A stretch of DNA of 64,000 nucleotides from Clostridia bacterium (lineage in GTDB: Bacteria; Bacillota; Clostridia; Peptostreptococcales; JAAYPU01). Both the position numbers and the translations under genes were made by a program. The notes below the pieces were generated by a model. It had not been told where the DNA came from, did not search any database, and saw only the letters and a program-made list of their open reading frames with translations. Below are positions 41,944 to 52,004 of this stretch, piece by piece; the first letter of the stretch is position 1; every line of letters begins with the position of its first letter. The DNA lies in assembly GCA_016278615.1 (NCBI GenBank), contig JADQBM010000029.1, forward strand, positions 22,668-86,667, read 5' to 3'.

Positions 41944-41957
41944 TCTTTAGAAATAGT

Positions 41958-42010
41958 AAAAGCACTAAAAGAGTTTTTCGAAAACGAAATCCTTTTAGTG
42001 CTTTTTAATT
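41958..42010 (+). terminator. Terminator after the aspartate aminotransferase gene
   Basis: AAAAGCACTAAAAG..CTTTTAGTGCTTTT 14-bp stem with an inner GTTTTCGAAAAC palindrome, followed by TAATTTT. Confidence 0.75.
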
Positions 42011-42173
42011 TTGAAGCTTCAAGAATATTGGTGTCTGTTTAACAAATTGTAATAAGCAATTTTTATTTGTAAAAAATCTTTTCTTTTCCTTCTTTAAGTT
42101 TGTCTTTTTTTGAATCCACAATCATAGAATTTACAATGAAATAAAAACAAGGGAAAAAATAGAAAGGAAAAAT

Positions 42174-42202
42174 TTGCAATTTATTAGAAAGGGATGTATA
42201 AT
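42174..42202 (+). promoter_or_regulatory. Candidate sigma-A promoter P1 far upstream of the hydrogenase operon
   Basis: TTGCAA (42174-42179), 17-nt spacer, TATAAT (42197-42202). It lies about 460 nt before the hydC start. Confidence 0.4.
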
Positions 42203-42395
42203 GATAATTAATTAACAATGACATTTAAGTGCACTTCTAAAAAATTAATTTCGTTCTAAATTTTCTAACAATCTACTTGTTAAAGTAAAATTTTTACCAT
42301 TGAATATTCTTTTCTATAACAATTTTCTTTCTAAATGAATTACTATTTAATTCTCTCTCAACTAAGTTTAGTTATCCGGCATAGCTGACAATTTT

Positions 42396-42404
42396 TGTTA
42401 TAAT
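42396..42404 (+). promoter_or_regulatory. Candidate extended -10 promoter P2 upstream of the hydrogenase operon
   Basis: TGtTATAAT (42396-42404). The -35 is poor (CCGGCA). Confidence 0.3.
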
Positions 42405-42666
42405 TTTATAAAGTTTTCAGCTATTGGAATAAACAGAGTTCTTTGCTTAAAGTGACATTTTTATCAGCACTTGAAGCTTAGAAATCGTTATCCAGGGGCT
42501 TTTCAATTCTTTCTTCAATGCTTACTTCAATGCTTTGAAGCATTAGAATTGTTAGCCATCGGGTAAGTGTTTCTTTGGATTCAACAATCATTTCTTATGA
42601 ACCCAAAGAAACGATAACAGTACCTTTTATTCTTAAAGTACTTTTAAAAAGAGAGGTGATTTAATC

Positions 42667-43179
42667 ATGAAAGAATCATCACAATGCTGCTGTGATGAAG
42701 GTCTCGAAGAAAAGTTGAAGCATGTAGAAAGAATCGTAGATGATTTCGTAAAACAAGAAGCAAACTTGATTCAAATTTTACACACGGTACAAAATGTTCA
42801 CGGAGCTCTTCCTTTAGAAATCCAGCAAACGATTTCACAAAAAACTGGAATTGCTTTATCCGAAATTTCTGGTGTCATAAGCTTCTATTCTTTCTTTTCT
42901 ACAAAGCCCAAAGGAAAACATATTGTTAAAGTATGTATGGGCACTGCCTGTTATGTAAGAGGTGGCAAAAAAATTGTGGACAGACTTCAAGAACTCTTGG
43001 ATGTAGAAATTGGCGAAACGACTGGTGATGGATTGTTCACTTTAGAAGTCGTAAGGTGTATGGGTGCATGTGGTTTGGCTCCGGCAGTTTCCATCGATGA
43101 AAAAGTTTTCAAGCAGGTAAATCCGGATAAGCTTCATACCCTCTTGAGTAAATACTATCCAAAGGAGGGACAACAATGA
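42667..43179 (+). CDS. hydC: [FeFe]-hydrogenase NuoE-like [2Fe-2S] subunit
   Basis: Thioredoxin-like 2Fe-2S cysteines CMGTACYVRG..CMGACGLAP. The 4-nt overlap with the next gene suggests translational coupling. Confidence 0.85.
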   Translation: MKESSQCCCDEGLEEKLKHVERIVDDFVKQEANLIQILHTVQNVHGALPLEIQQTISQKTGIALSEISGVISFYSFFSTKPKGKHIVKVCMGTACYVRGGKKIVDRLQELLDVEIGETTGDGLFTLEVVRCMGACGLAPAVSIDEKVFKQVNPDKLHTLLSKYYPKEGQQ

Positions 43180-46100
43180 AAAAAATCAATTCCTTAGAAG
43201 CTTTAAAACATATTGCAGAGAACATTAAAAAGAAAGAAGCCCAATACGAATATATTCTCCATGTTTGCTTCGGAGCTGGCTGTGTTTCTTCTGGCAGTGA
43301 AGAGATTACGGATGCTCTGGAAGAAGCTCTTGCTCACAATGGTATTCGAAACAAGGTACTGGTTCGAAAAACCGGATGCATTGGTGCTTGTGATAAAGGA
43401 CCTTCCCTTTATATCACCCCGGATAATACTTACTATACAAATCTGGAACCTGAAGATATGGAGCGAATCGTGTCCCAGCACCTCATTTCTAAAAATGTTG
43501 TTGAGGATAAATGTTATTTTGATTTAATCAGTAAACAACATATTAAAGATATTAATAAAATTCCTTTCTTTAGCAGACAAAGTAAAGTTGTATTAAACAA
43601 CTGCGGCATTATTGACTATTCATCCATCGAAGAATATATCGCAAGGGATGGCTACAAAGGTCTTGCCAAGGCTCTATTCAAAATGACCTCAGATGAGGTC
43701 GTTAATGAAATAAAGGAATCCGGTCTTAGAGGAAGAGGTGGCGGTGGTTTTCCCACTGGAACCAAATTAGAATTAGCCTCAAAGGAAAAAGACCCCCATA
43801 AATATATGGTCTGTAATGCTGACGAAGGCGACCCGGGTGCTTTTATGGATCGTGCACTTTTAGAAGGCGATCCCCATTCTGTTTTGGAAGGTATGCTCTT
43901 ATCTGGCTATGCCATTGGGGCCTCTAAAGGTTATATTTATGTGCGTGCGGAATACCCCCTTGCCATAGAAAGAATTGAATTAGCTATTCAGCAAGCACGA
44001 GAGAATGGTATTTTAGGAACTAAAATAATGGATAGCGGTTTTTCTTTTGATATAGAAATCAGAATAGGCGCAGGCGCCTTTGTCTGTGGAGAAGAAACTG
44101 CTCTAATTCACTCTATAGAGGGAAAACGTGGCGAACCTCGTCAAAAACCTCCTTTTCCGAGTACCAGTGGTATTTATGGAAAGCCTACGGTTATTGACAA
44201 CGTAGAAACATTAGCCAATATTTCAAAAATATTAATCAATGATGCAAAATGGTTTCATCAGTATGGAACCAAGAATAATAGGGGCACAAAAATATTTGCA
44301 TTAGCAGGCGCTGTACAAAACACAGGGATAATCGAAGTTCCCATGGGCACTACTTTAGGAGAAGTTCTTTTTGATATTGGCGGAGGCACTAAAAATAATA
44401 AGAAATTTAAAGCTTCTCAGACCGGTGGTCCTTCTGGTGGATGTTTAACCTCGGAGCATCTTAATACTGAAATCGATTATGACTCCTTGAAATCATTGGG
44501 AACCATAATGGGATCCGGTGGATTGATCAGTATGGATGAAGATAACTGCATGGTCGATGTGGCCCGATATTTTATGGAATTTGTTAAAGAAGAATCATGT
44601 GGAAAATGTCTGCCTTGTCGTGTTGGTACCACAAGGATGCTTGAAATTTTGGAAAGAATTACAAGGGGAGAAGGCGAAGAAGGGGACATCGAAAAGCTCA
44701 TAGAATTAGGAGAAAATATTAAAGAGTCCGCTCTATGTGGTCTTGGACAAACAGCTCCAAATCCTGTTCTTAGCACCATTCGATGGTTCCGTGAAGAATA
44801 TGAAGAGCATATTAAGCTTAAATATTGCAAAGCGGGCATATGTCAGGATCTCATGATTTCACCTTGCGAGAATTCTTGTCCTGCCGGTGTCAATGTTCCT
44901 GGTTATATTGCTCTTGTGGCAGCAAATCGAGTCAGAGATGCTTATAACCTTATACGCCAGGATAATCCTTTCCCAGCCGTTTGTGGCAGAGTTTGTACCC
45001 ACCCCTGTGAATCAAAGTGCAGGAGAGGCCAAGTGGATGATCCTATCGCCATCTCAGCTTTAAAGCGATATGCTGCAGATATTGTATTGAGCTTAGATGA
45101 ACCATTCCAAGAAGAAAAAATCCCATTAAAGGACAAAAGCGTTGGTATCATCGGGGGAGGTCCTTCAGGTCTTTCAGCAGCCTATCATCTTGCAAGATTA
45201 GGGTATGACGTTACTGTATACGAAGCTGCTGCTCATGCAGGCGGCTGCTTAACATTAACCATTCCTGAATACAGGCTCCCAAGGGATATTCTTCATAAAG
45301 AAATAAAAGCCATTGAGCAAGTGGGGGTTAAGGTTCTCAGAAATATGCGTGTGGGAAAAGATATTGCTTTTGACGAAGTCAAGAGAAGACATAATGCCAT
45401 TTACATCGCTACAGGAACTCATATTGCACGAAAAATGGGTATCGAAGGCGAAGGTTTGGCAGGCGTGTATCCCGGCTTTGAAATATTGCAGATGCCTAAG
45501 GAACAAATTAAATCAATCGTACAAGATAAAAAAATTGCAATTATCGGGGGCGGTAATACAGCGATTGATGTGGCACGTGTGGCCATAAGATTAGGTGCAA
45601 AAAGTGTTGAGATTATCTATAGGAGAACCATTGATAATATGCCGGCTGACGAAATGGAAATTGAAGAAGCGCAACGAGAAGGTGTTGTGATTCATACAAT
45701 GGTAACGCCTATATCCATCGTTGGTAAACGGAATGTTGAAAAACTAAAGCTTATTCGGCTTGAGCCCGGAAAGTTTGATTACACTTCTAGAAAAGTGAGC
45801 GTTCCTATACCCGGATCAGAATTTGAAATAGAAGAAGATATTGTCATACCTACTATTCGTCAAAATGAAGACTTATCCTTTATGGGTCTTGGCAATGGTG
45901 AAACCCTTAACTTGAAAAATGTAAGGAAAAGTGTCAGCAACTCTATGACTGAAATAGAAGGTGTTTTTGCTGGTGGGGATGTTCTTCAGAGATCTAATAC
46001 CGTTATTCACGCAATCGCTGACGGAAAGAAGGCCGCAACGGATATTGACATTTATTTAGGTGGCAAAGGTATTCTGAATAAAGGAAAGGAAATCGAGATT

Positions 46101-46265
46101 CCAAAGCCAGATGAAGAGGAAGATCTCGCAGAACATAAGAGATTCACTTTCAAAAGCTTACCTTTAGAAGAGCGTCAGAATAATTTTAATGAAGTCTTCA
46201 GTAGATATGATAAGCTGAGTGCAATTGCAGAAGCTATGCGTTGTCTCAGATGCAACAGGCGATAG
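43176..46265 (+). CDS. hydB: NuoF-like flavoprotein subunit fused to a GltD/NfnB-like FAD/NAD(P)H oxidoreductase module
   Basis: 1029 aa. N-terminal 2Fe-2S domain. NuoF core GLRGRGGGGFPTG and ESCGKCLPCRVG. Then GltD-type Cys region CPAGVNVPGY..GRVCTHPCESKC and two dinucleotide folds VGIIGGGPSGLSAA and IAIIGGGNTAIDVA. Confidence 0.85.
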   Translation: MKKINSLEALKHIAENIKKKEAQYEYILHVCFGAGCVSSGSEEITDALEEALAHNGIRNKVLVRKTGCIGACDKGPSLYITPDNTYYTNLEPEDMERIVSQHLISKNVVEDKCYFDLISKQHIKDINKIPFFSRQSKVVLNNCGIIDYSSIEEYIARDGYKGLAKALFKMTSDEVVNEIKESGLRGRGGGGFPTGTKLELASKEKDPHKYMVCNADEGDPGAFMDRALLEGDPHSVLEGMLLSGYAIGASKGYIYVRAEYPLAIERIELAIQQARENGILGTKIMDSGFSFDIEIRIGAGAFVCGEETALIHSIEGKRGEPRQKPPFPSTSGIYGKPTVIDNVETLANISKILINDAKWFHQYGTKNNRGTKIFALAGAVQNTGIIEVPMGTTLGEVLFDIGGGTKNNKKFKASQTGGPSGGCLTSEHLNTEIDYDSLKSLGTIMGSGGLISMDEDNCMVDVARYFMEFVKEESCGKCLPCRVGTTRMLEILERITRGEGEEGDIEKLIELGENIKESALCGLGQTAPNPVLSTIRWFREEYEEHIKLKYCKAGICQDLMISPCENSCPAGVNVPGYIALVAANRVRDAYNLIRQDNPFPAVCGRVCTHPCESKCRRGQVDDPIAISALKRYAADIVLSLDEPFQEEKIPLKDKSVGIIGGGPSGLSAAYHLARLGYDVTVYEAAAHAGGCLTLTIPEYRLPRDILHKEIKAIEQVGVKVLRNMRVGKDIAFDEVKRRHNAIYIATGTHIARKMGIEGEGLAGVYPGFEILQMPKEQIKSIVQDKKIAIIGGGNTAIDVARVAIRLGAKSVEIIYRRTIDNMPADEMEIEEAQREGVVIHTMVTPISIVGKRNVEKLKLIRLEPGKFDYTSRKVSVPIPGSEFEIEEDIVIPTIRQNEDLSFMGLGNGETLNLKNVRKSVSNSMTEIEGVFAGGDVLQRSNTVIHAIADGKKAATDIDIYLGGKGILNKGKEIEIPKPDEEEDLAEHKRFTFKSLPLEERQNNFNEVFSRYDKLSAIAEAMRCLRCNRR

Positions 46266-46276
46266 GAGGTGATACA

Positions 46277-48055
46277 GTGAAAAGCGTTAATATTAATATC
46301 AATGGTTTGCCTTTTCAGGCAGATAAAAACGATACCATCTTAGAAGCTGCTAAAAAAAATGGTATCATCATTCCAAGTTTATGCCATCTTGAAGGTGTAC
46401 ACGACGGAGGGTATTGCAGAATCTGTGTCGTTGAAGTTGAAGGAGAAAGGAATCTCAGAACTTCATGCAATACAAAAGTTAAAGAAGGCATGATTCTTCG
46501 AACAAACACACCTAAGGTTAAGCAAGTCAGAAAGATAGTTTATGAACTGATGCTGTCCAATCATCCTAAGGATTGCTTGAGCTGTACAAGGAACCAGCAC
46601 TGTGAGTTTCAAAGCTTAGGCGAGTTGATTCAAACAGAAGAAGATCGATTTACAGGGACCCTTTCCAATGTCTACGTAGATACCTGTAACCCTTCTATAG
46701 AACGAGATATATCTAAATGTATTTTATGTAGAAGGTGTATAACCATCTGTAACGAAATACAAGGCGTTGGTGCCATTAACATGCAAAACAGAGGTTTTGA
46801 TTCTTTTGTAGGGCCTCCTGAGACATTGAACTTAAATGACGTTAATTGTGTTTTATGCGGTCAGTGTACAACTGTTTGTCCAGTTAATGCTTTGAAAGAA
46901 AAAGATTCCATTGAAGACGTGAAGAAAGCATTAAATGATCCTACAAAAAGAGTCCTGGTTCAAACCGCTCCTGCAATACGTGCAGCATTGGGGGAAGAAT
47001 TTGGATATGAACCCGGAACATTGGTAACAGGAAAAATGGTTACAGCGCTTCGACTTATGGGGTTTGATGATGTCTTTGATACCAATTTTGCTGCAGATTT
47101 GACTATTTTAGAAGAGGGAACGGAATTCTTGGGTAGAGTGAAAAAGACTTTGTCAAAAGATCCCGTAACACTTCCCATGATAACCAGTTGCAGTCCTGGT
47201 TGGATCAAATATATTGAGCATACTTATCCTGATTTGCTTCCCCATCTTTCCACTTGTAAGTCGCCCCATATGATGCTGGGTGCCCTTGCAAAGAGCTATT
47301 ACGCGGATATAATCAACGAAAAACCTGAGAATATCTATGTGGTTTCTATTATGCCGTGTACCGCAAAGAAATATGAATGCACCCGAGAAGAAATGATTCA
47401 AGATGTAGATGCTGTGCTCACTACCCGGGAATTAGCAAGGATGATAAAAGATTATGGTATCGACTTTGTTAATCTGAAGGAAGAAAAATTCGATGACCTA
47501 TTAGGATTTTCTTCGGGAGCAGCTGATATATTTGCAAATACAGGTGGTGTTATGGAAGCAGCCGTACGAACAGTATATGAAATAATAACTGGAAGAGAAA
47601 TTCCTTTCGAAGACCTTCATATTCAACCTATTATGGGACTTGAATCTATAAAAGAAGGCTCTCTTACCATTGAAGATCCTGGTGAAGACTGGAAAGCTCT
47701 TGAAGGCTTTGAGGTCAAGATTGCTGTTGCCAGCGGGCTTAAGTCTGCTAAAAAATTACTTCAACAAATTGAAGACGGAACTTCTCCTTATCATTTCATT
47801 GAGATTATGGCATGCCCCGGCGGATGCATCAGTGGTGGAGGCCAACCAAGGCTCACAACAGATGAAATACGCCAAAAGAGATTAGAGGCCATATATCGAG
47901 AAGATGAGGGAAAATCTATCAGAAAATCTCACCTGAATCCAGAAGTCAACAAACTATACGAAGCTTACTTAGGCAAGCCCAATGGGGAGCTCTCTCACAA
48001 ATTGCTCCATACACATTATGTTGCCAGAGGCACTTATAACGAGCAGGTTAAGTAA
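46277..48055 (+). CDS. hydA: [FeFe]-hydrogenase catalytic subunit (multi-cluster, CpI-like)
   Basis: H-cluster motifs TSCSPGW, MPCTAKKYE and ACPGGCISGGGQP, plus N-terminal 2Fe-2S and 4Fe-4S cysteine motifs. GTG 46277 lies 5 nt after AGGAGGTGA and is preferred over the track start 46241. Confidence 0.9.
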   Translation: MKSVNININGLPFQADKNDTILEAAKKNGIIIPSLCHLEGVHDGGYCRICVVEVEGERNLRTSCNTKVKEGMILRTNTPKVKQVRKIVYELMLSNHPKDCLSCTRNQHCEFQSLGELIQTEEDRFTGTLSNVYVDTCNPSIERDISKCILCRRCITICNEIQGVGAINMQNRGFDSFVGPPETLNLNDVNCVLCGQCTTVCPVNALKEKDSIEDVKKALNDPTKRVLVQTAPAIRAALGEEFGYEPGTLVTGKMVTALRLMGFDDVFDTNFAADLTILEEGTEFLGRVKKTLSKDPVTLPMITSCSPGWIKYIEHTYPDLLPHLSTCKSPHMMLGALAKSYYADIINEKPENIYVVSIMPCTAKKYECTREEMIQDVDAVLTTRELARMIKDYGIDFVNLKEEKFDDLLGFSSGAADIFANTGGVMEAAVRTVYEIITGREIPFEDLHIQPIMGLESIKEGSLTIEDPGEDWKALEGFEVKIAVASGLKSAKKLLQQIEDGTSPYHFIEIMACPGGCISGGGQPRLTTDEIRQKRLEAIYREDEGKSIRKSHLNPEVNKLYEAYLGKPNGELSHKLLHTHYVARGTYNEQVK

Positions 48056-48107: not shown

Positions 48108-48300
48108 CAGATAAAAGATAATGAAAAGAAAAAAGAGATAAGAGATAACAGATAATAGATAACAGTTATGGAGGATTTTGATTCTCAAAATCTTCATTTT
48201 ATTTTAATAGAATTGCTAGTTTTGCCTAAGCAAAACTTACCTTAACTATTATCTGTTATCTGTTATCTCTTATCTTTCTTTAACCTATTATCTCTTATCT
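48108..48300 (+). repeat. HATH element copy G (reference orientation), hydA|trmB convergent spacer
   Basis: Left arm 48108-48171. GATTTTG-attct-CAAAATC (48174-48192). AGTTTTGC-ctaa-GCAAAACT (48218-48237). ACCTTAACT junction. Right arm to 48300, containing the trmB stop codon. Confidence 0.9.
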
Positions 48301-49126: not shown

Positions 49127-49156
49127 TTAAACAAAGAGCAGTCTCCACTGCTCTTT
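49127..49156 (-). terminator. Terminator after nrdG
   Basis: AAAGAGCAG-tctcca-CTGCTCTTT overlapping the stop codon. The minus strand continues TGTTTAAC. Confidence 0.7.
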
Positions 49157-49838
49157 ACCGTACAATTACTTCCTGAACATAGCTTGCCAAACTTTGCTTC
49201 ATTTTATTTAGCTCATTTTGAGCAAATGGGGTATAAGCTTTATTGTCATCTAAAAGTACGCCACTTCTTTTAAAATTTTGAATGCAAAACCGCTTGGCAT
49301 TTAAAATTGATTGAGCAATATCAACCAAATCCTCTTCTTTTATTATTTCTTTATGGACCGTGGTCCGAAACTCATAAGAAATATGAGAATGCTTTATTAT
49401 ATCAATACTTTCTTCAATCTTTCGTATGTCTACACTTGCACCCACTACCTTCTGATATTGTGATAAAGGTGCCTTCACATCCATTGCAATATAATCTATT
49501 ATATCTTCGTCTAATAGTTTTTTAAATAATATAGGGTTCGTCCCATTTGAATCTAATTTTACAAGAAACCCCATGCTCTTTATTTCTGCTATAAAATCAG
49601 CAAGATCCCCGTTTAAGGTGGGTTCTCCTCCAGAAATACAAACACCATCTAGATATTTTTTTCTCTTATTCAGATGCTTGAAAATTTCATCTGGGTCCAT
49701 GACGTTCTTTGTTTTATTTACCAAATCAGGATTGTGGCAATACCCGCAACGAAAATTACACCCTCCAGTAAAAAGCACTGTGCATATTTTTCCCGGATAA
49801 TCAATAAATGAAGTCTTAACTTGTCCTAAAATCTCCAT
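49155..49838 (-). CDS. nrdG: Anaerobic ribonucleotide reductase activating protein (radical SAM)
   Basis: CNFRCGYCHN radical-SAM cluster motif; directly downstream of nrdD. Confidence 0.9.
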   Translation of the reverse strand: MEILGQVKTSFIDYPGKICTVLFTGGCNFRCGYCHNPDLVNKTKNVMDPDEIFKHLNKRKKYLDGVCISGGEPTLNGDLADFIAEIKSMGFLVKLDSNGTNPILFKKLLDEDIIDYIAMDVKAPLSQYQKVVGASVDIRKIEESIDIIKHSHISYEFRTTVHKEIIKEEDLVDIAQSILNAKRFCIQNFKRSGVLLDDNKAYTPFAQNELNKMKQSLASYVQEVIVR

Positions 49839-49840
49839 GT

Positions 49841-51970
49841 TTACCCTACTTGAGTGATGGTTTTAATTTTCTGGTTATTTTTTAAGCTATTTTCCACAGA
49901 AAATTCAATTCTATCTTTGAATTCCTCCTGTTTTCCTCTGTTCCAAGACTGTACTGGGCGATGAAATCCTACAACTCTGGACCAGACTTCCGCTTCTTTA
50001 CCGCAAGTAGGACATTCAAAATGTTCTCCTGCAATATAGCCATGCTCCAAACAAATTGAAAAAGTTGGTGTCACCGTAATATAAGGAATGGCTGTATTTT
50101 CCATTACTTTCTTAATAAATGATTTGCAAGTCTCAATGTCCTCAATTTGTTCACCTAAGAAGCCATGGAGAACAGTTCCTCCCGTATAAAGAGTTTGAAG
50201 TTTTTCCTGCCTTTCGACCGCTTCGAATATATCATCCGTACTATTCACTGGAAGCTGCGTTGAGTTTGTATAGTATGGCTCATCTTTACCTTGTGTGAAA
50301 ATATTTGGGTAAACCCTTTTATCCAGCCTTGCAAATCTATAGGATGCTCCTTCTGCTGGAGCCGCCTCCAGATTCCATAGGCTTCCCGTTTCTTCCTGAT
50401 ATATCTGTATCACTTTATTCATGAATTCCATAATTTCAACTGCAAATTCATTGCCTTCATCTGTATTTAGATCTACACCTAAAAGATTTAGACAGGCTTC
50501 ATTCATTCCATTAAGTCCAATAGTGGAGAAGTGATTTTTAAAGAATTCGCCCGTTGCATTTTTGATATCTTGTAGGTAATACTGTGAATAAGGATACAAT
50601 CCTAATCCCATGTACTGTTCCAAAATGATCCGCTTACTTTCACATATTTCCTTAGCATATCCCATGAGCTGATGCACCTTTTGTTTGAATTCTTCTTTTG
50701 TCTTGGAAACATGCCCAATTCGTGCCATATTAAGGGTAACCACGTTAATGGACCCTGTTAATGGATTCGCCCCAAAAAGTCCGCCTCCGCGTTTACGAAG
50801 CTCTCTGTTATCTAACCTAAGCCGACAGCACATGGAACGAATGTCTTCTGGAGATAAATCTGAATTTAAGAAATTAGCAAAATAAGGGGTTCCAAACTTT
50901 CTTGTCATTTCCATAATTTTATTAACGGAATCCGATTCCCATGGAAAATCTTCGGTAATGTTCACGGTTGGGATAGGAAAACTAAAAGCCCTTCCTGCAC
51001 CATCCCCCTCCATCATTACTTCACTATAAGCGATGTTAAACATATCCATTTCTTTTTGGAATTCCCCATAGGTTTTATCTAACAACTCCCCGCCAATCAT
51101 AACCGCCTGATTTTTCAAAATAGCATGGGGGGTAATATCAAGGGTTATGTTTGTAAAGGGTGTTTGAAACCCTACTCGCGTGGGGACATTTAAATTGTAT
51201 ATAAATCGTTGCACCGCTTTTTTAACTTGCTTATAATCAAGCTGATCATAGTGGATAAATGGAGCAAGGTAAGTATCTACACTTGAAATCGCCTGAGCAC
51301 CAGCAGATTCTCCTTGCAATGTATATAACAGATTGGCGATTTGCATTAGGGCTGATTCAAAATGTTTGGGTGGCTTAGACTCAATTTTGCCCTTTGCACC
51401 TCTAAACCCATTTCTTAAAAAGGCCTCTAAATCCCAACCACAGCAATAAGGTGCCAGAAGTCCTAAATCATGTATATGTAAGTCACCTTTGATATGAGCA
51501 TCTCTTAATTCTTTTCTATATATTTTATGAAGCCAATACTTCTTGGTAATGCTTTCAACAATATGATTGTTAAGCCCTTGAAGGGAAAATCCCATATTGG
51601 CATTTTCGTTGACGCGCCAATCTTCAAGAGATACGTATTCTTCAATCATTTTTTCCGCATCCATAAATAGATTTTTAACTTCACGAATTTCCTCATGTTT
51701 CTTTCTGTAGATGATATAAGCTTTAGATGTCTTTGCATGGCCTTCTTCTATAAGGACCTTTTCAACAATGTCCTGTACATCTTCCACAGACGGTATACTG
51801 GCATTATAAGTTTCATTAAGGATTTCTTCCACAATATTGGAAAGCCTCTGTGCCTGCATCTCATCTTGGCCACCAACAGCATGTGCTGCTGAAAAAATGG
51901 CATTTTTTATTTTGATTAAGTCAAAATCAACAATTTCCCCTGTTCTTTTCTGAATCTTTGTTACTGCCAT
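49841..51970 (-). CDS. nrdD: Anaerobic ribonucleoside-triphosphate reductase
   Basis: ATP-cone N-terminus, class III core, C-terminal CPTCG zinc ribbon and glycyl-radical loop. ATG 51970 (AAGGGAG 7 nt upstream) is preferred over the track TTG at 51991. Confidence 0.95.
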   Translation of the reverse strand: MAVTKIQKRTGEIVDFDLIKIKNAIFSAAHAVGGQDEMQAQRLSNIVEEILNETYNASIPSVEDVQDIVEKVLIEEGHAKTSKAYIIYRKKHEEIREVKNLFMDAEKMIEEYVSLEDWRVNENANMGFSLQGLNNHIVESITKKYWLHKIYRKELRDAHIKGDLHIHDLGLLAPYCCGWDLEAFLRNGFRGAKGKIESKPPKHFESALMQIANLLYTLQGESAGAQAISSVDTYLAPFIHYDQLDYKQVKKAVQRFIYNLNVPTRVGFQTPFTNITLDITPHAILKNQAVMIGGELLDKTYGEFQKEMDMFNIAYSEVMMEGDGAGRAFSFPIPTVNITEDFPWESDSVNKIMEMTRKFGTPYFANFLNSDLSPEDIRSMCCRLRLDNRELRKRGGGLFGANPLTGSINVVTLNMARIGHVSKTKEEFKQKVHQLMGYAKEICESKRIILEQYMGLGLYPYSQYYLQDIKNATGEFFKNHFSTIGLNGMNEACLNLLGVDLNTDEGNEFAVEIMEFMNKVIQIYQEETGSLWNLEAAPAEGASYRFARLDKRVYPNIFTQGKDEPYYTNSTQLPVNSTDDIFEAVERQEKLQTLYTGGTVLHGFLGEQIEDIETCKSFIKKVMENTAIPYITVTPTFSICLEHGYIAGEHFECPTCGKEAEVWSRVVGFHRPVQSWNRGKQEEFKDRIEFSVENSLKNNQKIKTITQVG

Positions 51971-52004
51971 ATCCACACTCCCTTGTGACAAACTTTTTGA
52001 AATA

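Follow-up and report, generated by a model that had tools for sequence, protein, structure and literature searches.

Bfu-type enzymes, among them the HydABC [FeFe]-hydrogenases, have a central part in the energy conservation of anaerobes, and how they bifurcate is still debated. In the solved HydABC and Stn structures a histidine/cysteine hinge, which forms a Zn (or [2Fe-2S]) site, precedes a mobile ferredoxin-like domain of the B subunit (PMC10482914, PMC11829005). According to the passage of PMC11829005 that cites the work, deletion of clusters B3/B4 of this domain abolishes bifurcation in Thermoanaerobacter kivui HydABC. A hydrogenase with another B subunit, a NuoF-type flavoprotein fused to a GltD-type module, was noted in 2018 as the 'second trimeric hydrogenase' of Vallitalea guaymasensis L81, with speculation on a link to glutamate metabolism (PMC6163223). 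Zheng & Huang (2024, mSystems) named the architecture sub-type I BfuABC and postulated a second bifurcating FAD (PMC11406978); on the fused hydrogenase both papers are purely bioinformatic. Here we describe a hydC-hydB-hydA operon of this architecture in a 64,000-nt stretch of the Clostridia bacterium contig JADQBM010000029.1 (positions 22,668 to 86,667, forward strand; assembly GCA_016278615.1). The whole stretch is referred to as the window, and coordinates are those of the window.

The operon is compact and runs from 42667 to 48055 on the + strand. Its open reading frames (ORFs) match the coordinates given in an earlier reading of the letters and their translations (the sequence-only reading). 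The three genes are:

42667..43179, + strand: hydC, 170 aa NuoE-like subunit with a thioredoxin-like [2Fe-2S] domain (C1 in Bfu nomenclature)
43176..46265, + strand: hydB, 1029 aa NuoF-type flavoprotein with a GltD-type module
46277..48055, + strand: hydA, 592 aa [FeFe]-hydrogenase catalytic subunit of the M3a type

HydC is full-length, as PF01257 was matched over model positions 2-144 of 145 (Pfam, E 3.8e-47). HydB was divided into the following parts:

HydB 24-101 (43245..43478, + strand): N-terminal thioredoxin-like [2Fe-2S] domain (B5); PF01257, E 6.7e-10
HydB 149-546 (43620..44813, + strand): NuoF core with FMN/NADH site, SLBB domain and [4Fe-4S] cluster B1
HydB 545-568 (44808..44879, + strand): hinge and junction, H545-x5-C551-x4-C556-x7-C564-x3-C568-P
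HydB 553-637 (44832..45086, + strand): Fer4_20 (dihydropyrimidine dehydrogenase (DPD) domain II), 2x[4Fe-4S], E 3.4e-25; includes K630
HydB 655-950 (45138..46025, + strand): Pyr_redox_2, E 4.4e-22; FAD fold GGGPSGL and putative NADP(H) fold GGGNTAID ... YRR
HydB 1000-1028 (46173..46259, + strand): C-terminal tail ...AEAMRCLRC, like the N-terminal piece of the canonical GltD cluster domain

The fused architecture of HydB is essentially certain. The sequence-only reading had proposed a NuoF core followed by a GltD-type module, quoting motif strings that are all present in the translation, and the domain searches bore this out in full. Besides the Fer4_20 and Pyr_redox_2 matches, Pfam placed Complex1_51K at residues 179-350 (E 2.3e-48) and NADH_4Fe-4S at 461-545 (E 2.9e-35). 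In NCBIfam the core scored 491.9 bits against TIGR01959 (nuoF_fam) over residues 149-546, and GltD-type models covered residues ~550-1027. The best match in the PDB was Acetobacterium woodii HydB (7q4v_B, E 4.8e-218) over residues 29-562, and HydB 562-1027 matched residues 102-567 of Caldicellulosiruptor saccharolyticus NfnA and Sporomusa ovata StnC, so that the sequence matches divide at residue ~562. An AlphaFold2 model (mean predicted local distance difference test score 83, predicted template modelling score 0.76), used in a fold search, retrieved HydB chains with template modelling scores of 0.85-0.95 as well as NfnA/StnC chains, with the same division.

The genome (3.5 Mb, 99% complete; six Fe_hyd_lg_C and seven Complex1_51K matches) itself supplied the comparison for the C-terminus. 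It holds four NuoEF-linked [FeFe]-hydrogenase clusters, the HydB C-termini of which are all different: a canonical HydB of 600 aa with B3/B4, one of 541 aa without C-terminal domain, a minimal one of 413 aa, and the 1029-aa fusion of the window. A StnABC-like transhydrogenase cluster (178, 583 and 1175 aa) lies on contig C85. When the fused HydB was aligned with the three other HydB proteins and the one StnB, it was colinear with the canonical HydB and StnB through H545-x5-C551-x4-C556, which fits the linker motif of canonical HydB/StnB, after which the C-termini diverged. Past the hinge the canonical HydB and StnB continue with the CxxCxxCxxxCP ferredoxin motifs of clusters B3/B4, whereas the fused HydB has seven residues and then C564-x3-C568-P, which already belongs to the GltD cluster domain. 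No Fer4-type domain was found after its hinge in the Pfam scan or the alignment; the Fer4_20 domain of the GltD module stands there instead. The sequence-only reading had left open whether the ferredoxin tail was replaced or extended. Because the hinge is the same and the C-termini differ from those of the 600-aa HydB and StnB, we regard it as settled from these alignments that the tail was replaced by the GltD module, and extension was dropped. By analogy with the solved HydABC/Stn structures (PMC10482914, PMC11829005), H545, C551 and C556 would be zinc ligands.

The residues on both sides of the junction are highly conserved. In an alignment of 47 full-length HydB homologues (58-89% identity) the following were invariant: the B5 cysteines C31, C36, C68 and C72; the FMN loop; C458 and the B1 cysteines C475, C478, C481 and C521; the hinge residues H545, C551 and C556; the six post-hinge cysteines C564, C568, C603, C607, C611 and C615; L629-K630-R631; the glycine-rich folds (including G660 and G662) and Y815-R816-R817; and C1023-x2-C1026 at the extreme C-terminus. 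The hinge/junction motif also fitted all 46 fused ORFs taken from other phyla. In the 413-aa HydB of the same genome the B5 cysteines, C458, the B1 cysteines and H545/C551/C556 were all absent from the alignment. The half cluster motif RCLRC at the end of HydB and the overlapping ORFs raised the question of a frameshifted hydB-hydA fusion or a truncated HydB; this was rejected, because the tail and its place at the C-terminus are invariant in the 47 homologues, and AGGAGG and GTG come after the hydB stop codon.

The same tail appears to complete the GltD cluster domain. The main Fer4_20 match in HydB is confined to model positions 21-108; positions 1-29 were matched by the final 30 residues of the protein taken alone (E 2e-4). 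The tail aligned with residues 9-49 of the canonical GltD of this genome (...ASRCMDC) and with residues 524-572 of its StnC-like protein (...AERCLEC), a segment that follows the GltD insert of the latter. RCLRC, RCLHC or RCLKC was found near the C-terminus of most complete fused ORFs from other phyla. Together with the C-terminal pair, the six post-hinge cysteines make eight, the ligand number for two [4Fe-4S] clusters. We infer that the first GltD cluster motif is split and the module in effect circularly permuted, with C1023-x2-C1026 probably supplying the two ligands missing from the first cluster. StnC has the same split motif, with a Fer4_20 match from position ~21-27 and RCLxC after the module.

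The type of flavin site was judged from the cluster next to the FAD. This [4Fe-4S] cluster has a glutamate ligand in bifurcating NfnB and a strictly conserved, essential lysine (K170) in StnC, and the Stn module, homologous to NfnB, was shown to be non-bifurcating (PMC10482914). In HMMER alignments K630 of HydB aligned with K170 of S. ovata StnC (8oh5_C), at a position where NfnI-L of Pyrococcus furiosus has E. Forty-five fused ORFs from other phyla extend to this position; it is K in 38, H in 7 and E in none. Among solved structures, the HydB module is closest to the GltD insert of the StnC/NfnA (Bfu) type. Since the lysine of StnC, and not the glutamate of NfnB, stands at the FAD-proximal cluster, we read the FAD of HydB as a plain converter. 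K630 favours an StnC-like entry/exit module between NADPH and the Fe-S clusters, and argues against the second bifurcating FAD of Zheng & Huang (PMC11406978). The Nfn-like module suggested in the sequence-only reading is disfavoured for the same reason.

Its other suggestion, a second pyridine-nucleotide site, perhaps with NADPH coupling, gained support. Two dinucleotide folds are present, and the YRR that follows the second Rossmann strand, invariant in the alignment, occurs also in the StnC-like protein of the same genome, to the GltD insert of which the FAD/NADP(H) region of HydB is 42% identical. S. ovata Stn and C. saccharolyticus NfnABC depend on NADPH (PMC7483475, PMC11829005), and a GxGxxA motif has been taken as a marker of NADP(H) (PMC7483475). 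Given the invariant YRR in common with StnC and the NADPH dependence of Stn and NfnABC, the natural reading is a second nucleotide site of the NADP(H) type.

HydA has the full M3a layout, with 2Fe-2S, His-ligated 4Fe-4S, 2x[4Fe-4S] and H-domain, as matched in Pfam by Fer2_4, the NuoG-type 4Fe-4S domain, Fer4_7, Fe_hyd_lg_C (E 4.4e-96) and Fe_hyd_SSU. It ends after Fe_hyd_SSU, without a C-terminal [2Fe-2S] domain. The NCBIfam model 'NADH-dependent [FeFe] hydrogenase, group A6' scored 849.6 bits (cut-off 765), and the best PDB matches were HydA1 of T. kivui (8a6t_A, E 1.6e-181) and of A. woodii (7q4v_A). Its H-cluster motifs read TSCSPGW, MPCTAKKYE and EIMACPGGCISGGGQP. The first of them, with TSCSPGW instead of TSCCPGW, was considered as a mark of a defective or sensory HydA; this was rejected, as the same motif occurs unchanged in A. 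woodii HydA1, an active enzyme. hydE, hydF and hydG were each found in the genome above the curated cut-off, a gene content by which the hydrogenase can be matured.

Compared with the HydABC enzymes of A. woodii, T. kivui and Thermotoga maritima (7q4v, 8a6t, 7p5h), HydA, HydC and HydB 1-560 are homologous (E 1e-172 to 1e-218). FMN, B1, B5 and the hinge are shared and the H-cluster motifs are identical to those of A. woodii. HydB differs in lacking B3/B4, the proposed ferredoxin site, and in carrying a 470-residue FAD/NADP(H) module instead. Of the features of group A3 (HydABC/Bfu), therefore, HydA, HydC, the FMN/B1 region of HydB and B5 with the hinge were recognised in the sequences, and the C-terminal 2x[4Fe-4S] domain was absent. 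The StnABC/NfnABC complexes of S. ovata, C. saccharolyticus and Thermococcus sibiricus (8oh5, 9bov, 9n5u) share the NuoE subunit and the NuoF core, and their GltD module has the same FAD-proximal lysine and YRR. In Stn, however, the module is inserted in a third subunit that resembles NuoG, B3/B4 are retained for ferredoxin in StnB, and an H-cluster is lacking, whereas in the window enzyme the B subunit carries the module and a true hydrogenase forms the third subunit. In NfnAB/NfnSL (5jca, 4ylf), NfnB/NfnL is homologous to HydB 560-975 (E 7e-39, first 176 residues), but the N-terminal CxxC, the glutamate at the proximal cluster, the bifurcating FAD and the NfnA partner of NfnB are not found in the window enzyme.

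HydDB group A2 also links a GltD-type protein to a group A HydA, but there GltD is a separate subunit without NuoE/NuoF, whereas the GltD-bearing HydB of the window has a NuoF core. The published A2 rule reads 'GltD ... but not NuoF' (PMC5037454) and excludes a GltD protein that also carries NuoF; its wording fits such fusions having been seen. The Bfu-family paper defines BfuB by a ferredoxin-type domain, IPR017896, and on being searched for GltD, fusion and NfnB gave no mention of them (PMC9304861); the fusion may have been filtered out of that set for lack of a Pfam match to the ferredoxin-type domain. All features of sub-type I BfuABC were found in the window operon (B3/B4 replaced by DPD_II and a FAD/NAD(P) domain, order C-B-A, M3a HydA), which by its sequence is a further member, with no architectural difference.

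A phylogenetic survey, which the sequence-only reading had proposed, showed that the fusion is widespread. The best 120 database relatives of HydB were all ~1020-1100 aa long and matched with full coverage, the V. guaymasensis homologue being 62% identical over its full length. With HydB residues 440-760, which span the NuoF/GltD boundary, as query, 65 genomes out of 400 sampled from the same phylum (~16%) gave full-span matches in ORFs of ~1010-1150 aa. Among the matches listed from species-representative genomes, full-length fusions occurred in Bacillota, Armatimonadota, Chloroflexota, Thermodesulfobacteriota, Planctomycetota and Omnitrophota, and also in Bacteroidota, Verrucomicrobiota, Acidobacteriota, Gemmatimonadota and one Promethearchaeota (Loki) metagenome-assembled genome (MAG). 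The order hydC-hydB(fused)-hydA recurred in Bacillota, Armatimonadota, Halanaerobiales, Omnitrophota, Bacteroidota and Verrucomicrobiota. Mine-drainage metagenomes contained DNA nearly identical to hydB, and two of them may be the source of the assembly; among the listed datasets carrying it there was no RNA dataset.

The fused NuoE/NuoF-GltD pair was found with different partners. At least 11 loci, including the closest relatives of the window, had a true HydA. In other loci, from other phyla, the partner, upstream or downstream, was an FdhA-like molybdopterin subunit of 880-1021 aa (L026, L031, L037, L038, L044, L058, L067), and a third type was a HoxU-like protein of ~230 aa with 2Fe-2S and 2x[4Fe-4S] (L028, L040, L045, L050, L051, L053, L055, L057, L087). 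We conclude that the fused core is a general module and that pairing with a hydrogenase is one of its uses. The other two pairings would apply the same design to formate or ferredoxin; we have not seen either described. One of the non-hydrogenase pairings is that of the Promethearchaeota MAG. In a Dehalococcoidia MAG a 730-aa protein (L038:1007-3199) with Fer2_4, a NuoG-type cluster, 2x[4Fe-4S], Fer4_20 and Pyr_redox_2 is encoded just upstream of the NuoE / NuoF-GltD / FdhA-like cluster, so that this locus has two GltD-type modules.

In a quick IQ-TREE analysis of the NuoF core (91 rows), the window HydB fell in a well-supported clade with three hydrogenase-linked fusions of Bacillota, and unfused HydB and StnB nested among the fused rows. 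A single origin of the fusion was rejected, as an approximately unbiased test excluded monophyly of the fused rows (difference in log likelihood 98, p 0.003), the group having been chosen with the tree already known. In evolutionary terms the B subunit looks to have an exchangeable C-terminal module. In three MAGs (L023, L025, L049) the fused-type hydCBA adjoins a second hyd cluster as tandem operons, the second HydB being short (526-545 aa) and without C-terminal domain. ORFs of ~610-700 aa in genomes of the same phylum matched residues 4-320 of the junction query with 39-45% identity (for example G238:C28:52322-53221 and G265:C1:646501-647397). From the matched segment they look like a NuoF-type four-helix/[4Fe-4S] segment with a GltD module and without FMN domain, probably belong to the PRK12771-like family of NCBIfam, and may be related to the fusion or represent its precursor.

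We read the product of hydCBA as a soluble, heterotrimeric [FeFe]-hydrogenase belonging to the HydABC/Bfu family. As its most likely function we propose the coupling of H2 to both NAD(H) and NADP(H), for and against which we see equal chances. Given a spacing of only seven residues between the hinge and the first GltD ligand, the GltD clusters would lie roughly in the position of B3/B4, and the ferredoxin branch would end at FAD and NADP(H) instead. The low-potential branch would run from the FMN/HydC cluster region through the GltD clusters and the FAD to NADP(H), the FAD acting as a simple two-electron/one-electron converter as in StnC. The FMN/Fe-S core would couple both nucleotide half-reactions in the reaction 2 H2 + NAD+ + NADP+ <-> NADH + NADPH + 2 H+. 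Two one-electron transfers per two H2 would fill one FAD, so the stoichiometry would fit. Physiologically NADPH is the more reducing pool, and in vivo NADPH would be the lower-potential partner and NADH the higher-potential one. The enzyme could work in either direction, forming NADPH from H2 at low H2 pressure, or H2 from NADH with the help of NADPH. As a wider and more tentative proposal, the fused enzymes may form a family of nucleotide-only, ferredoxin-independent bifurcating/confurcating hydrogenases, in which NAD(H) would serve as the partner of high potential and NADP(H) as that of low potential, with formate and ferredoxin equivalents in the assemblies with FdhA-like and HoxU-like subunits; this is rather more apt to fail than to hold.

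Several points weigh against the coupling of H2 to both nucleotides. H2 at 1 bar is more reducing than NAD+ and NADP+, so coupling is not thermodynamically required and pays only at low H2 pressure or with strongly skewed nucleotide ratios. Where the GltD clusters lie with respect to C1 and FMN was deduced from the seven-residue tether and may prove different. The same cluster pair is the ferredoxin site in NfnB, and by analogy ferredoxin may still be a substrate. The Stn-like NADPH/NADH/ferredoxin transhydrogenase of this genome makes an extra NADPH link not obviously needed. Finally, the sequence-only reading had been unsure whether the fusion was a well-characterised subtype; it proved to be described from genomes (PMC6163223, PMC11406978), and no biochemical or structural study of any member was found in the searchable literature, an absence that is unproven, as most subscription journals lay outside the search.

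Three other explanations were weighed and ranked lower. The nearest is an uncoupled dual-cofactor hydrogenase, with NADH at the FMN and NADPH at the FAD as independent doors to one Fe-S wire and the H-cluster. Bifurcation would be unneeded with both nucleotide couples more positive than H+/H2 at 1 bar, K630 marks a FAD of the StnC type, which is non-bifurcating (PMC10482914), and the B3/B4 clusters, on which bifurcation by the T. kivui enzyme depends in the work cited in PMC11829005, are absent from the window HydB. Yet the B5 domain, hinge and C458 are invariant across the family and absent from the short HydB of the non-bifurcating type, which is unexpected if the machinery of conformational coupling is idle, and we consider this explanation unlikely, though a serious competitor. 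Less probable again is that ferredoxin is still a substrate, binding at the outer GltD cluster as in NfnB, or that the FAD is a second bifurcation centre as in the proposal of Zheng & Huang (2024), which would make the complex a hydrogenase and Nfn-type transhydrogenase with four substrates. Here the homology to NfnB, the two [4Fe-4S] clusters of which lead to ferredoxin (PMC10482914), and the HoxU-like partners in other phyla, for which ferredoxin is the only obvious third substrate, are set against the loss of the NfnB glutamate. That residue is deemed important for the low-potential proximal cluster, and all 45 fused ORFs have K or H in its place. Moreover, the homologous Stn module is non-bifurcating (PMC10482914), and no NfnA-like gene was found within or adjoining the hydCBA operon.

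The coupled reading is also to be set against a GltD module that serves another acceptor, such as sulfur or polysulfide as in SudA/Nso-type relatives, or redox-sensing regulation. GltD-like modules do serve many acceptors, e.g. in sulfide dehydrogenase, NsoC and SfrB (PMC7483475), and the Vallitalea authors thought of glutamate metabolism (PMC6163223). However, both dinucleotide folds and the NADPH-type YRR are invariant, and among the flanking genes inspected there was neither a glutamate synthase large subunit nor a sulfur-related gene, gltBD lying elsewhere in the genome; we give this explanation very little chance.

The fused variant amounts to a natural experiment, in which the ferredoxin branch would have been swapped for an NADP(H) branch while the other hallmarks were kept. 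If the wider, nucleotide-only proposal is true, Bfu enzymes would gain a new substrate logic, NADP(H) taking the position otherwise occupied by ferredoxin. Where H2 and NADPH metabolism in digesters, guts, sediments or mine drainage is modelled from genomes, the fusion would at present be mislabelled as an ordinary NADH/ferredoxin-bifurcating hydrogenase; by the published HydDB rule every HydA linked to NuoF is placed in A3, the group of bifurcating enzymes. As a family the fusions are moderately interesting; the instance in the window is an ordinary one, one more member of a subtype described from genomes.

The remaining hydrogenase/Stn loci of the genome lie outside the window (L102-L105: C94:19085-23640, C51:22310-26812, C103:12220-15754 and C85:20805-26630), and two further HydA-like genes were found on contigs C44 and C116. 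The gltD gene adjoins a 1509-aa gene, which by length and position should be gltB, away from hydCBA. The other GltD-like gene (428 aa) is followed by a 421-aa gene, and from their N-terminal sequences the two read as a PreT/PreA-like pair. A canonical NfnAB among these other GltD-like genes was therefore rejected.

At the gene junctions, the translational coupling of all three genes claimed in the sequence-only reading held in part. The ATG of hydC is preceded by a Shine-Dalgarno sequence, AGAGAGGTGA, and an ATGA overlap joins hydC to hydB. Although the ORF of hydA extends back to TTG 46241, GTG 46277 is the likelier start, with AGGAGG overlapping the hydB stop codon 7 nt before it; with this start, residue 4 of HydA pairs with residue 4 of T. 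kivui HydA1. hydA thus most likely starts at GTG 46277, which leaves 11 nt between hydB and hydA and no overlap. A consensus scan of the flanks gave two signals:

42173..42202, + strand: promoter-like site TTGCAA-17-TATAAT, ~465 nt 5' of hydC (consensus scan only)
48171..48195, + strand: terminator-like hairpin 116 nt past the hydA stop, with a T-run after its 11-bp stem

Upstream of hydC lies a gene-free stretch of 720 bp (41944-42666), the best promoter-like site of which is the one listed; its position would imply a long leader before hydC. As promoter-like sites in the region were no more numerous than in shuffled sequence, this is weak evidence. An Rfam search of the 720-bp stretch yielded sub-threshold chance matches only and no RNA element. 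The neighbouring genes are unrelated, with an aminotransferase upstream and, downstream, a convergent trmB-like methyltransferase gene on the opposite strand followed by nrdDG; hydCBA is a self-contained three-gene unit. The nrdD (716 aa, ATP-cone) and radical-SAM activase nrdG genes (49155-51991, - strand) encode an anaerobic ribonucleotide reductase and are ordinary genes for a strict anaerobe.

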